Virus record (IMG/VR): IMGVR_UViG_3300034101_005931
Span: 1 to 64,000 of that record
Direction: 5' to 3' (one strand)
Length of the DNA: 64,000 nt
Source: a virus
The position numbers were made by a program, and so were the translations under genes. Position 1 is the stretch's first letter. Each line of letters starts with the position of its first letter. Under the pieces are notes generated by a model. It worked only from the letters and a program-made list of their open reading frames with translations. It was not told where the DNA came from and ran no database searches. This document shows positions 435 through 49,644 of this stretch, piece after piece.

Positions 435-1364
435 TTAAAAGCTAGAAGTACCATAATTAATCGTTATATAATCATCTCCGCTCTGTAAAGGAGCTGTTCC
501 ATCAGGTGTTATTAAAATAAGAGGTGGTAGATAATTATAAGGAGGTGCATTTTCTATGCTGATAGAATCGTAAAGTGATAGTGTTGCTGGGTTTGGCACC
601 TGACCAAGATAGGTCGCTCCATAATAAGTCCACAACGTAGTAGATGGTATACCGGAGAGTGATGTAAATATACCGTTAACATTAAAGTTTTTAATAGAAA
701 AACATGTATCTATTAAACCGGTAGCGAAAGATAAACAACAACAAACACTCACTGGCCAATCTTCTGGTAATGAAGTATTAACATAGCTGGTATAACTTGT
801 ATCTTCAGGGTGCTGACAATCTATAATAAGCGTTTTACAAAAATCTGTTAGTCTAATTCTCATTTTATAGAATTTGACTTCATCATATGTTTGTACTTGT
901 TGATATAGAGAAAGTGGTTTACTATATGCCGATAAAGATAAATCATTCGACGTATAATATTTTGAATACAATCTATTTTGTGAGCCGCGAACAGAAATAC
1001 TATTAGGTGTGCCTATAGTTGAACCATCAGGACCAAAAGCTGATGTACCATAATTACCTGTTATATCAAACCCAACACCTAACTGACCACCATTAACACC
1101 GAAAAAGGTATCTTGTTGTGAATTATTAACACTTGCTGATATACCTATTGTCGAAGAATAACACAGACCAGGTCCCGGTCCACCACCTGATAAACATTTA
1201 GCAAAAGTATCATAGAAAAACACACAAAACCCCTCACTGCCCGATACTTCTGATCCGTAGCATGCATATTCAAACGATATAACTATGTCCTTGGTAGTAT
1301 CAAGGAAAGGTGATAAGTATATAGTGCCCGCTACTGCATTTGGCGGCAAAGCGTATAATTCCAT
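435..1364 (-). CDS. L-type lectin/concanavalin-like domain protein, probably virion-associated
   Basis: ISFEY...GSEGFCVFF and GGQLGVGFDITGNY segments resemble the legume-lectin beta sandwich. Confidence 0.6.
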   Translation of the reverse strand: MELYALPPNAVAGTIYLSPFLDTTKDIVISFEYACYGSEVSGSEGFCVFFYDTFAKCLSGGGPGPGLCYSSTIGISASVNNSQQDTFFGVNGGQLGVGFDITGNYGTSAFGPDGSTIGTPNSISVRGSQNRLYSKYYTSNDLSLSAYSKPLSLYQQVQTYDEVKFYKMRIRLTDFCKTLIIDCQHPEDTSYTSYVNTSLPEDWPVSVCCCLSFATGLIDTCFSIKNFNVNGIFTSLSGIPSTTLWTYYGATYLGQVPNPATLSLYDSISIENAPPYNYLPPLILITPDGTAPLQSGDDYITINYGTSSF

Positions 1365-21881: not shown

Positions 21882-22217
21882 GATCTGGCCGTAGTGGTTT
21901 CCAGATCAGGGTGGAATCTCTTTGCCTGTTAGTGTGTTAGGAGACCCATCTGTGCTAGACGAGCTAGGCTACATAAAGCTACGACTCTATGCATTTAGTT
22001 TAACACAGGCTGAGGACGGAAGTACTGGCTCCATGCCGGGCTCCGTTGAGGAAGGGACAATTCCTAGGACAAAACCCTTCACATACTAAATATTTTAGTA
22101 GACCCGGGACGCCTCTCGATGATGTCGATGCGCACCGTTCGGGTGATCTAGCGTGATAACAAAGCCAGTACACATTAAGTTGGGACGCCTTCGGTTTCTG
22201 GTACAAAAACACGCCCT
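21882..22217 (+). ncRNA. Unidentified structured RNA (~335 nt) abutting tRNA-Ile
   Basis: No credible ORF; stems GATCTGG/CCAGATC, AGGGTG/CGCCCT, GCCTGT/ACAGGC, GTACTGGCT/AGCCAGTAC, CCGGG/CCCGG, GAAGGG/CCCTTC, TACTAAA/TTTAGTA. Confidence 0.7.
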
Positions 22218-40511: not shown

Positions 40512-40530
40512 ATGAATATTTATTAAACAG

Positions 40531-40578
40531 TTGCTATTTTTATAAATATCTCTATACTTACATTAAGTTCTTTAAAAA
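40531..40578 (+). promoter_or_regulatory. tmRNA promoter(s) and boxA-like element
   Basis: TTGCTA-N16-TATACT with embedded TATAAATA; GTTCTTTAAAAA at 40567-78. Confidence 0.6.
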
Positions 40579-40581
40579 TTT

Positions 40582-41034
40582 GGGGGTGTACTGGTTTCGA
40601 CCTGAAACAGAAACTAAAAACGCATGTAGAGGTTGGTCAGCTGGCCTCTTAAAAAGCAGACCGAAAAATTAAGAGCAGATAATACTGACTCCATCTTGGC
40701 TGAAGCCGAGTACATATTCAACAACGCTTCCGAGTTTCTCGGAGAGGTTGAAGAAGAGTATCTCTTAGCAGCTTAAGGTCCTTTAACTCAGACCCTCTAA
40801 GAGTTAATTGATAACAGAGGAAGTTAGATTGTTGGTAGTTCTAATGTAACAACAAAATATCAACCGTATATAGATTGCGATAATGTCTATAGGCAGACTA
40901 AAAACTCGGTTAGTGTCACCAAGCAGCCTAAAGTCTTCGTTACCGTATGGTGGCTGAAATGCTGAAGATACTAAAACATGTAGACCTTTTAGTCTATGGA
41001 TTCAGGGACAGGGGTTCAACTCCCCTCATCTCCA
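40582..41034 (+). ncRNA. ssrA: tmRNA with tag (A)ADNTDSILAEAEYIFNNASEFLGEVEEEYLLAA
   Basis: 5' GGGGGTGTACTGGTTTCGAC; 3' GACAGGGGTTCAACTCCCCTCATCTCCA; G3-U70; tag ORF 40675-40776 ends LAA-stop. Confidence 0.95.
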
Positions 41035-48057: not shown

Positions 48058-48216
48058 TTATGAAAGCCGTGGTTGATTTCCACCTGTAGCAGCAGGAAGC
48101 ATAGCTGTATTTGGCATCGATGCAGAGTCCTTTCTTACAGGCGTGAGTGTGCCCAAAATTTCTTGTTTGCGCTTTTTTCTCTTAAGTTTTTTTAAATACT
48201 CTTTGAAAGACTGCAT
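48058..48216 (-). CDS. Small basic protein (52 aa) with head-targeting-like N-terminus
   Basis: MQSFKEYLKKLKRKKRK...; TAATG coupling to rpsU. Confidence 0.6.
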   Translation of the reverse strand: MQSFKEYLKKLKRKKRKQEILGTLTPVRKDSASMPNTAMLPAATGGNQPRLS

Positions 48217-48395
48217 TATAGATACTTAGATTTTTTATGAAGAGATCTTAGCTTTCTTTTGCGTTTTAGTTGAGAATTTTCAAAAGTACGTCTTCTATAA
48301 ACTTCTTCCATTGTTCCTTCAGTAAACAAGCGCGATTTGAGTCTCTTTAAAGTGTTGTCAATTGGTTCGTTATCTCGAACTCTTATTTCTATCAT
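48216..48395 (-). CDS. rpsU: Phage-encoded ribosomal protein bS21 (59 aa)
   Basis: MIEIRVRDNEPIDNTLKRLKSRLFTEGTMEEVYRRRTFENSQLKRKRKLRSLHKKSKYL; below ORF-track cutoff. Confidence 0.85.
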   Translation of the reverse strand: MIEIRVRDNEPIDNTLKRLKSRLFTEGTMEEVYRRRTFENSQLKRKRKLRSLHKKSKYL

Positions 48396-48415
48396 AGATT
48401 ATATACTTATACTTT

Positions 48416-48517
48416 TTAAGAATTCTTTTTATCATCTGTAAAGACAATAGAGAAGATAAAGAGACTGATAAACGTCGCGAATAAAGCAGTTAGTAATGCT
48501 GTAATTACTTTTATCAT
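48416..48517 (-). CDS. Small single-TM peptide (33 aa)
   Basis: MIKVITALLTALFATFISLFIFSIVFTDDKKNS directly 3' of the large RNA. Confidence 0.5.
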   Translation of the reverse strand: MIKVITALLTALFATFISLFIFSIVFTDDKKNS

Positions 48518-48524
48518 AGGAAAA

Positions 48525-49105
48525 TTGGGTGTTTTATCGCAAATTGGACCATATCAGTTGCGTCTAACATGGCATCTAACTGACGGATATGCCCATTTAA
48601 GGGTTACATATAACGCATTTGTCAGTTATCAGAACACCTAACCTGTTGTAGTCTGAGTTTTTTAGTCACTATCGGACCATGGCTTTGTTCTTACTCAGCA
48701 TAACCATTTCGCTCTATATTTTGGACCTCTGTTGAGGCTTATTCACAGTGGAACCATCTTAGATATCTCTAAGAAAGGAGGTAGAGTTGCATACCTTGTG
48801 TTAAGGTGATACGTTTTTATCGGGACGTCAAACACCATACCTTACCCGCATGTAGAAGCCAGGGCAAGTCACCCCTGCTTAGCCTAGATACCGACTCAAC
48901 CCTCTCTAGGACTTCTTATATAGATCAGAGCTTATGACGCTGTTATTCTGATCTATGTCTTACAGATCCATCCTCATTTAATGCCGGTGCATGACTATGA
49001 TGCGTTGGCCCGGATGGACTGCAGTTATTATTGAGCTAGGATTTGCCTTCCTTTGAGAGACTTATTTTAACGCATCGTCTTACTCAGTCTCAGCTCAAAA
49101 GGTTG
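48525..49105 (-). ncRNA. Unidentified large structured RNA (~580 nt)
   Basis: No ORF of 60 aa or more in any frame; more than 10 inverted-repeat stems; upstream promoters and boxA-like motif on minus strand. Confidence 0.78.
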
Positions 49106-49110
49106 TTAAT

Positions 49111-49169
49111 TTTTCAAAGATCGTTTTTGATTATTTATAAAGTATATATTCTTTCTTAAGGAACTGCAA
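49111..49169 (-). promoter_or_regulatory. Promoters and boxA-like element for the large RNA
   Basis: Minus strand: TTGCAG-N17-TATACT, then TATAAATA, then GATCTTTGAAAA. Confidence 0.65.
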
Positions 49170-49335
49170 TATTATTTTCTAGGAACGTAACTTTATAGTT
49201 TTGCTCTTCTTTCGGATAACAGTTGCGATATTTTTTAATATATGCTATAACTTCTTCCCATGTATTAAAAGGCGATAACATGACATCATACCAATAACCA
49301 GTAGAGGCAATCATTCTTTCAATTTTATACATGTT

Positions 49336-49644
49336 TTACAGTTCAATTGCGTTTTCGTTTTCAAACATGTCACGTTTAAAGTAGTAATCCTCTATTTGCT
49401 GCTCTGTGTAATCGATTTCACGCTCAATATCATCACGAGCATTATCAACAGCTTCACAAATAGGCTCTAAGGTATGACAAATAAACTTAAAATTAGTAAA
49501 ATCACAAGCCCACGATACTTGTTCTTCAATTTTTGTACAGACCTCAAGCGCTTGTTTTAATTCTTTAATTTTTTTATTAGCCTGTATGAGATGGCAAGGA
49601 TCATTATTCGAGGTCATCGTCTTCTTGGATACTGCCGGGTTCAT
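49336..49644 (-). CDS. Hypothetical coiled-coil protein
   Basis: ORF overlapping its upstream neighbour. Confidence 0.55.
   Translation of the reverse strand: MNPAVSKKTMTSNNDPCHLIQANKKIKELKQALEVCTKIEEQVSWACDFTNFKFICHTLEPICEAVDNARDDIEREIDYTEQQIEDYYFKRDMFENENAIEL

Follow-up and report, generated by a model that had tools for sequence, protein, structure and literature searches.

A probable family of large pseudoknotted non-coding RNAs in freshwater phages, with a leader common to the phage tmRNA gene

The window analyzed here is a stretch of 64,000 nucleotides (nt), positions 1 to 64,000 of the viral record IMGVR_UViG_3300034101_005931, an 86-kb IMG/VR phage record estimated to be 39% complete. 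Between two small minus-strand genes of this window lies a non-coding stretch (48518-49122), which an initial annotation made from the letters alone had read as an ornate phage RNA preceded by promoters of its own. We conclude that the stretch, read from 49122 to 48518 on the minus strand, is very probably a gene in its own right, encoding a large non-coding RNA with a pseudoknot and belonging to an uncatalogued family of large freshwater phages. Homologues on 19 other contigs, covariation, and contigs from RNA libraries all speak for this central claim. New here are the enlarged two-domain form of the RNA, its operon with a micropeptide and the ribosomal protein bS21, the exchange of 5′ domains among relatives, and a leader held in common with transfer-messenger RNA (tmRNA).

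No open reading frame (ORF) of 60 or more amino acids (aa) lies inside 48525-49105 under code 11, as had been claimed, and no frame crosses 48518-49122 when TAG is read as Q, TGA as W (code 4), or TAA as Q. The G+C content is 0.38-0.45 over 48500-49099, compared to 0.27-0.34 in the flanks. All ten pairs of inverted repeats listed in the initial annotation are exact reverse complements at the positions given there, and both copies of AUGGUCC are present on the minus strand. The folding energy of the single sequence gave z scores of -2.00 (minus strand) and -1.84 (plus strand); on each strand 3 of 100 shuffles were equally good. Because this barely beats chance, the case for a structured RNA rests on comparative evidence.

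Homologues in freshwater phages

The family comprises 20 contigs including the window, and these yield 13 distinct full-length sequences of 331-607 nt and two truncated ones. Nearly all members come from uncultured large freshwater phages, and the RNA of the window, about 600 nt long, is the longest found. L085, a 1.4-kb lake contig, was found by scanning an alignment of six bS21 homologues (67-100% identity) against JGI metagenomes. It matches the window with an nhmmer E value of 5.9e-84 and 71% identity over 1296 nt, flanking genes included, and has the same gene order: a 58-aa gene, the RNA, a hydrophobic peptide, bS21, and a 52-aa gene. Promoter, leader, and the first ∼250 nt of the RNA are near-identical between the two, the bS21 proteins are just 71% identical, and the 3′ half of the RNA is a mosaic of identical islands interspersed with unalignable hairpins. 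Another relative, L095 (nhmmer E 6.6e-65), was found using one conserved island as a pattern, and is without the first 85-nt hairpin domain.

A BLAST search with the core against 49 whole viral records uncovered a 22-nt island, 100% conserved in far more distant jumbo phages and surrounded there by a shorter, clearly homologous RNA. Two exact-pattern scans of IMG/VR returned family loci in 13 of 14 and 16 of 18 matches. A profile built from eight short members matches the window at 48521-48837 (E 1.2e-22), and two covariance models score 77.3 bits (R1, in the 3′ domain) and 94.6 bits (R2) on it. The window carries the invariant island AAGGUAUGC..CUCUACCUC, the X/Y pseudoknot described below, the closing helix GUGUU/AACAC, the loop RGCGCAAC, and the end UGCGAYAAAACACC. 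Three of the pattern matches (L109, L116, and L119) are not members of the family, whose profile was used to sift the matches. The pattern scan of a prokaryote genome collection gave 41 matches, of which 40 were chance and one a family contig, L132. This sole member from the prokaryote collection (CALBDR010000484.1, 3122 nt) is binned in a ‘Candidatus Melainabacteria’ metagenome-assembled genome, an assignment that is doubtful given the short contig; it is probably phage DNA.

Among related jumbo-phage records at least 90% complete, two of seven contain the RNA. BLAST of the stretch, and of two short members, against 50,697 GenBank phage records found nothing similar, and BLAST of five whole records gave chance matches only. 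In 80 related jumbo-phage loci, collected through homologues of an AAA ATPase encoded 1.2 kb upstream, no RNA was found within 6 kb of the ATPase, and the bS21 genes in four of these loci had no large gap upstream. Scans of viral contigs with a single bS21 protein and with the alignment were both empty, and a first DNA pattern, a 21-mer running into the variable CUU after the H3 island, found no match. All or part of the stretch is present in 18 DNA runs from lakes or other freshwater, and six metatranscriptome runs contain it at small shares. We found no published description of the family in the literature searched, with supplementary files and paywalled papers outside the reach of the search.

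Comparison with catalogued RNAs

The initial annotation had been unable to match the RNA by eye to ROOL, GOLLD, or OLE, and a cmscan against Rfam 15 (4227 families) bears this out. At gathering score the whole window yielded the tmRNA and tRNAs only; 48300-49300 at E≤10 gave nothing but a noise-level snoRNA match (11.5 bits, E 9.1); and at those further family loci that were covered (E≤1), no Rfam match fell on the RNAs. At these thresholds none of the covariance models for GOLLD, ROOL, and OLE matched, nor did those for RNase P RNA and group I and group II introns match the RNA. The scans did detect the neighbouring tRNAs, tmRNAs, and a group I intron, which served as positive control. This intron match lies in a related phage, at L105:2569-2803 on the plus strand (83.3 bits, gathering score 50), and its first bases fall within the 3′ end of the tmRNA match (2158-2580) or immediately beyond it.

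Architecture of the RNA

The features of the locus, in the 5′ to 3′ order of the RNA, are as follows.

49141-49169, minus strand: sigma-70-like promoter TTGCAG-N17-TATACT, recognized from the sequence, with a predicted start site.
49132-49139, minus strand: TATAAATA box, 3′ of the promoter.
49111-49122, minus strand: boxA-like leader GAUCUUUGAAAA (DNA GATCTTTGAAAA), at or near the transcript 5′ end.
49122-48518, minus strand: whole RNA gene, supported by lack of ORFs, homology, and covariation.
49031-49098, minus strand: D1, an extra 5′ hairpin domain, UUGAGCU/AGCUCAA around GAGAC/GUCUC and GGA/UCC.
48854-49025, minus strand: D2, an extra domain of ∼170 nt with a palindrome (ACUGCAGU), helix UCCAUCC/GGAUGGA around an inner hairpin GCAU/AUGC, a further hairpin (AUAGAUCAGA/UCUGAUCUAU), and three helices meeting in a junction (AGAAG/CUUCU, CCUAGA/UCUAGG, and CAGGG/CCCUG).
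48798-48853, minus strand: V1, a variable linker from D2 to the core, unalignable among the window, L085, and L095.
48778-48797, minus strand: H3, a 20-nt island AAGGUAUGCAACUCUACCUC with predicted hairpin AGGUA/UACCU, recognized by sequence conservation.
48754-48778, minus strand: H4 hairpin module, which closes into a stem in all 13 distinct family members despite their differing sequences.
48741-48754, minus strand: small hairpin UUC-CACUGU-GAA (family form UUC-CAYWGU-GAA), paired in 13 of 13.
48726-48737, minus strand: H5, a variable hairpin, followed by an A-rich AGAGCG junction.
48702-48705 with 48681-48684, minus strand: pseudoknot helix X, GGUU/AGCC (family form GGUU/A(A/G)CC).
48693-48698 with 48653-48658, minus strand: pseudoknot helix Y, CUGAGU/ACUCAG.
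48665-48677, minus strand: hairpin GUC-CGAUAGU-GAC, between the pseudoknot strands.
48520-48647, minus strand: 3′ domain, with invariant closing helix GUGUU/AACAC enclosing H7, a variable hairpin (UAACUGAC/GUCAGUUA), and H8 (CCAUGUU/GAUAUGG with conserved loop AGACGCAAC); the RNA ends UGCGAUAAAACACCCAAUUUUCC (family end UGCGAYAAAACACC(C)AAUUUU).
48416-48517, minus strand: ORF for a 33-aa hydrophobic micropeptide, directly 3′ of the RNA, no Pfam match.
48216-48395, minus strand: bS21 (rpsU) gene, Pfam PF01165 (E 4.4e-13).

The members have in common a conserved 3′ core of ∼280 nt, made up of H3, H4, the small hairpin, H5, the junction, the X/Y pseudoknot, and the 3′ domain. In all of them conservation ends sharply past AAUUUU. 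The 5′ modules differ: in the short forms a small pseudoknot accompanies one or two hairpins, D1 and D2 occur together in the window and L085, L095 has D2 without D1, and L132 has D1 without D2. D1 is thus present in the window, L085, and L132, and absent from L095 and the short members; D2 is present in the window, L085, and L095 only. As judged from this sequence comparison, the 5′ part is a set of swappable modules placed ahead of the core. In one RNA-library contig 55 bases of V1 have been swapped for 66 other letters, with both flanks still matching. A helix closing the 5′ end onto the 3′ end was sought, and candidates paired no better than shuffled tails.

H3 is identical in 11 of the 13 distinct sequences; the other two are L095, with 2 nt inserted in the loop, and L115, with a single change. 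In the window H3 is followed by CCUUUCU, giving RNA ACCUCCUUUCU, which resembles the anti-Shine-Dalgarno (SD) tail of 16S rRNA. CCUCC is retained in 7 of the 13 sequences. A reading of H3 as a mimic of the 16S 3′ end (AACAAGGUA...ACCUCC) was dropped, as only AAGGUAUGC and CUCUACCUC are conserved. The H8 loop RGCGCAAC is unchanging across the family.

Elsewhere in the window, another non-coding block rich in G+C (21882-22217, plus strand) ends AAAAACACGCCCUUU two bases before a tRNA-Ile gene, and this end resembles the AAAAACACC(C)AAUUUU end of the RNA family. The block gave no match to the family profile and no Rfam match at gathering score.

Covariation and the core pseudoknot

Covariation backs most of the helices named in the initial annotation. 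The counts below come from alignments fitted to the model structure and from related sequences, both of which inflate scores. RNAalifold on the three long members found 19 of 112 pairs compensatory. In the 3′ domain, 11 of 19 pairs are changed on both sides and 89.9% of cells are paired; its covariation score is 0.404 compared to 0.146 in shuffles, none of 500 being as high, and slid partners reach at most 0.082. The central domain has both-side changes at 19 of 33 pairs, including, within the segment of H4 and the small hairpin, 5/6 in helix 2 and 2/3 in helix 5, and a score of 0.311 compared to 0.125 in shuffles (again 0/500 as high; slid partners ≤0.074).

Individual helices give concrete cases. 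In D1, GAGAC/GUCUC becomes GAGAU/AUCUC in L132. In D2, the hairpin AUAGAUCAGA/UCUGAUCUAU is replaced by AUAGAUAGAG/CUCUAUCUAU and AGAAG/CUUCU by GGAAG/CUUCC, both in L085 and L095, and CCUAGA/UCUAGG by CCCGGA/UCCGGG in L095; a contig from an RNA run pairs a change of 48969 C>G with 49016 G>C. The small hairpin occurs as UUC/GAA, UCC/GGA, UUU/AAA, and UUU/GAA. The invariant H3, GUGUU/AACAC, and GCGCAAC loop are uninformative on pairing either way.

The initial annotation had also proposed an 8-bp pseudoknot between D1 and D2, and this pairing did not hold up. The sole informative change, C to U in L085, is compensated inside the local inner hairpin of D2 (GCAU/AUGC to GUAU/AUAC), each partner domain exists without the other (L095 and L132), and a variant from an RNA run breaks the pairing uncompensated. 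Instead, comparison of the sequences supports a different pseudoknot, formed by helices X and Y in the core. It is of the H type, with helix X enclosing a CUGGGU that pairs with ACCCA further downstream in the family. Full pairing of helix X is seen in 11 of 13 sequences, and at least four of five pairs of helix Y in 12 of 13, with the variants UGAGU/ACUCA, UAGGU/ACCUA, and UGGGU/ACCCA. An alternative pairing, AAGAG/CUCUU, was rejected, as the long members keep helix Y alone.

Promoter and leader

The promoter, the TATAAATA box, and the leader GATCTTTGAAAA are found where the initial annotation had put them, and their layout does match that of the tmRNA gene of the window. There, TTGCTA-N17-TATACT is followed after 8 nt by GTTCTTTAAAAATTT, adjoining the GGGGG at 40582, the tmRNA 5′ end. 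The promoter region of the RNA gene is 100% identical between the window and L085, whereas the flanking genes have diverged, and the other 11 distinct members have promoters of the TTGACA, TTGACT, or TTGATC type at the same place. The leader, G[A/U]UCUUU[G/A]A, opens 13 of 13 distinct family sequences, always 3′ of a sigma-70-like promoter, and in most short members ∼7 nt past the -10 box.

In the three phages checked (the window, L105, and L108) the leader motif abuts the mature tmRNA 5′ end. The TTGACA-like promoter and [G/A]UUCUUU[G/A]AA leader ahead of the tmRNA genes lie at 40526-40581 of the window (plus strand), at ∼2090-2170 of L105, and at ∼1265-1352 of L108. This arrangement suggests a common promoter-leader cassette for stable RNAs in these phages.

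The leader appears akin to the boxA of rRNA operons. The boxA of E. coli is GCUCUUUAACAA. As in the boxA elements of Nus antitermination (rRNA leader, lambda nut), a U-rich CUUU is followed by A-rich bases, and the motif heads long untranslated stable-RNA transcripts, here the family RNA and the phage tmRNA. In contrast to those systems, only a few bases separate the family motif from the predicted start, so that it is not set deeper in a leader, and boxB and boxC were not identified here. One literature search for the leader motif returned nothing relevant.

Strand and occurrence in RNA libraries

The minus strand is fixed by the orientation of promoter and leader, which agree in 13 of 13 distinct sequences, and by the abutting tRNAs, which lie on the strand of the RNA in four of four cases. 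Sequence variants can also be read for strand. The change 49037 T>C in D1, from an RNA run, leaves a G-U pair if the minus strand is the RNA but A.C if the plus strand is; CCCUG>UCCUG leaves a G-U tolerated on the minus strand only; and in the 3′ domain G-U and A.C counts stand at 9 to 5.

Two metatranscriptome runs, picked for holding this stretch, contain contigs of relatives with 80-95% identity, confined to 48544-49099. One contig bridges D2 and the H3 island across the replaced linker. The flanks are uncovered in both runs; given their poor conservation and the use of the stretch itself to select the runs, this is no evidence for a discrete transcript. One RNA contig has a loose end of adapter-like letters past 49099.

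Gene neighbourhood

The window has many tRNA genes and a tmRNA gene. A tRNA directly downstream of the RNA is frequent but not universal in the family. In four members a tRNA starts at the last bases of the RNA, in two a tRNA-Asn lies ∼200 nt 3′ of it, and in the window and L085 the micropeptide gene takes this place. The ∼200 nt between RNA end and tRNA-Asn are conserved between two phages (CCGAGAAUCCUAACGAGAUUCUAGUCAG...; L099:1792-2000 and L100:1771-1968) and may be a further RNA module. An HNH-type gene lies 3′ of the tRNA.

The initial annotation had linked the RNA to a transmembrane (TM) micropeptide and rpsU. This link stands for the window and L085 and fails in the rest of the family, so that it covers 2 of 13 distinct sequences. 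L085 has a hydrophobic ORF of diverged sequence at the same place (internal ATG of 959..1099), and the micropeptide is absent 3′ of the RNA in the other 11 distinct members. Phage bS21 genes occur in 4 of 10 RNA-bearing and 2 of 9 RNA-free records, and an association of the RNA with phage bS21 was rejected on these numbers. All 10 records that bear the RNA have a tmRNA gene, as do 5 of the 9 that lack it; the association is weak, confounded by clade, and phylogenetically non-independent. No terminator turned up in a simple scan of the interval from the RNA to the micropeptide gene.

Two small genes 5′ of the RNA (102 aa and 58 aa; window 49156-49644, minus strand; L085 2-359, plus strand) overlap or abut. 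They are kept in L085 and have no Pfam match. In the complete 310-kb jumbo phage record G046 a bS21 domain lies inside a 200-aa frame (G046:C1:17047-17184, minus strand), much longer than a normal bS21, which may be a fusion.

Discussion

The best reading, by analogy with known systems, is that of a stable, trans-acting structured RNA that would belong to the translation-RNA set of the phage and be under rRNA-style antitermination. Host RNA polymerase would transcribe the RNA, and the boxA-like leader would recruit Nus-type antitermination as in rRNA operons, letting the long untranslated transcript escape Rho. The 3′ end would be made by processing, by RNase P where a tRNA abuts. In the window, transcription probably continues past the RNA through the genes for the micropeptide and bS21, because no terminator was found between them. 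The mature RNA would act in trans as a folded scaffold, possibly self-associating, among the phage translation RNAs (tRNAs and tmRNA).

Several points weigh against this reading. In the comparison with shuffles to which the initial annotation had pointed, the folding energy of the single sequence does come out slightly better than chance (z about -2), but it does so on both strands alike. The covariation figures are generous, coming from structure-guided alignments of related sequences, and the counts of G-U and A.C favour the minus strand weakly. For the transcript that the initial annotation had proposed to look for in metatranscriptomes, there are assembled contigs of relatives in two RNA libraries; these give no ends, strand, or abundance, and DNA carry-over may be their source. 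The boxA identity of the leader is putative. With no predicted terminator, the RNA of the window may also be the head of a peptide-bS21 transcript, and with no supported end-closing helix, 5′ modules and core may not form one mature molecule. Finally, the RNA is dispensable for the lineage, given the two of seven near-complete related records that carry it.

In manner the RNA is most like GOLLD and ROOL, a comparison by analogy, though their covariance models fail to match. GOLLD is likewise borne by phages and prophages, often beside tRNA genes, and found in lake metagenomes. It differs in often exceeding 800 nt, compared to 331-607 nt here, and the family starts with a boxA-like leader. In addition, no tRNA was seen inside the family RNA, and GOLLD forms oligomers, which for the family RNA are hypothetical. 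ROOL is of a similar size class (a 659-nt example was studied) and, like the family RNA, is encoded by phages near tRNA islands, has multiple pseudoknots, and is not known to have a protein partner (PMC12286853). ROOL differs in habitat, the family being one of lake phages, and its sequence islands are unrelated.

Given these analogues, the RNA might form an RNA-only multimer through self-complementary elements, which would offer tRNAs or ribosomal components a cage or scaffold; we regard this as conceivable though unlikely. The setting fits, being phage-borne, beside tRNAs, and with multiple pseudoknots, and a variable 5′ region precedes a conserved 3′ region, as is reported for GOLLD (PMC12286853). 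Six of eight short members have a perfect 10-12-nt palindrome at the same H4 place, in four versions (AUUCUAGAAU, UCUGAUCAGA, GGCUUCGAAGCC, and CUUCUAGAAG, among L101, L102, L104, L105, L107, and L110), and pairing between two RNA copies is possible because these palindromes would be loopless as hairpins. Members with D2 keep an 8-nt palindrome ahead of that domain, ACUGCAGU or UCUGCAGA, with the outer pair swapped and the palindrome intact. However, 10-nt palindromes arise by chance in about one-third to one-half of same-length shuffles, which leaves the shared position as the sole argument for function. The palindrome is missing from L103 and L108, and the window has 8-nt palindromes only.

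The stretch could also be a chain of separately folded and processed modules (D1, D2, and the core) cut from a leader-type transcript, on the model of rRNA-operon leaders and the small stable RNAs of the T4 tRNA cluster. Species 1 and 2 of that cluster are stable non-coding RNAs of ∼120-140 nt, co-transcribed with tRNAs and freed by tRNA-processing enzymes. The four family members ending exactly at a tRNA start recall them, but the T4 RNAs are much smaller, and no tRNA follows the RNA of the window. D1 and D2 each occur independently, also of the 5′ hairpins of the short members, and neither a 5′-3′ helix nor the D1-D2 pairing is supported, as a chain of modules would lead one to expect. On the other side, one RNA-library contig spans D2, linker, and H3 island contiguously, a single promoter and leader stand upstream of all modules in every member, and between modules neither a tRNA nor a ribozyme nor any known processing signal turned up. 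We consider such a chain decidedly unlikely.

OLE, whose partner genes are oapA, oapB, and oapC, is the third large RNA that invites comparison, being ornate and ∼600 nt long, and the window adds ACCUCCUUUCU, a membrane micropeptide gene, and a bS21 gene to the likeness. According to two reports, OLE is membrane-tethered and binds bS21 at a stem in which an anti-SD mimic, CCUCCU, meets an SD-like strand (PMC12054373), and it has a pocket recalling the RpsU site (PMC12286853). The family RNA might work with bS21 in the same way, H3 and CCU(CC) mimicking an SD/anti-SD duplex that binds phage or host bS21. Such binding would sequester or deliver bS21, or feed back on the micropeptide-bS21 operon, with the peptide as a tether like OapA. 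In both the window and L085, RNA, TM peptide, and bS21 do follow one another on a single strand without a predicted terminator, and ACCUCCUUUCU comes directly past H3 in the window. Nevertheless, bS21 stands 3′ of the RNA in only 2 of 13 distinct sequences, and the counts of phage bS21 (4/10 with the RNA, 2/9 without) set the two groups little apart. CCUCC is kept in 7 of 13, the bS21-encoding records of the short clade (G020, G036, and G056) read CCUCU, and the clade that does read CCUCC encodes no bS21. Moreover, the OLE model found no match, H3 is invariant and its pairing is predicted, and OLE is chromosomal in Bacillota extremophiles. Binding of bS21 by the family RNA is an analogy only, and we judge it improbable to a high degree. 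It is just as doubtful that H3 and CCU(CC) form a dock, mimicking an SD duplex, that captures bS21 or the 30S subunit, making the operon with peptide and bS21 a phage counterpart of OLE-OapA-bS21. If true, this would give an OLE-like phage particle that re-tunes translation initiation during infection and may act as a self-associating multimer.

A very divergent catalytic RNA (RNase P RNA, group I or group II intron) is hardly credible. Size and the number of invariant junction nucleotides would fit a ribozyme, the RNA is located among tRNA genes needing 5′ processing, and such phages carry group I introns, as with the 83-bit match beside the L105 tmRNA. Yet no model of these classes matched (E≤10 in 48300-49300, E≤1 at the other family loci covered) in scans that detected the true intron, tmRNAs, and tRNAs. 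The RNA has its own promoter and lacks flanking exons, and conserved strands of the P4 type of RNase P were not found by eye.

Very few large folded RNAs of bacteria and phages are known (GOLLD, ROOL, OLE, and raiA), and the function of each is an open problem. The well-supported family described here, in our preferred reading structured RNAs that would be stable and belong to the translation RNAs of the phage, offers a compact core of ∼280 nt, natural swappable domains, and an rRNA-style leader common with tmRNA. Because it occurs naturally in short and long forms, the family lends itself well to structure determination. The RNA of the window is the most elaborate version found, and no other kind is joined to genes for a membrane micropeptide and phage bS21.

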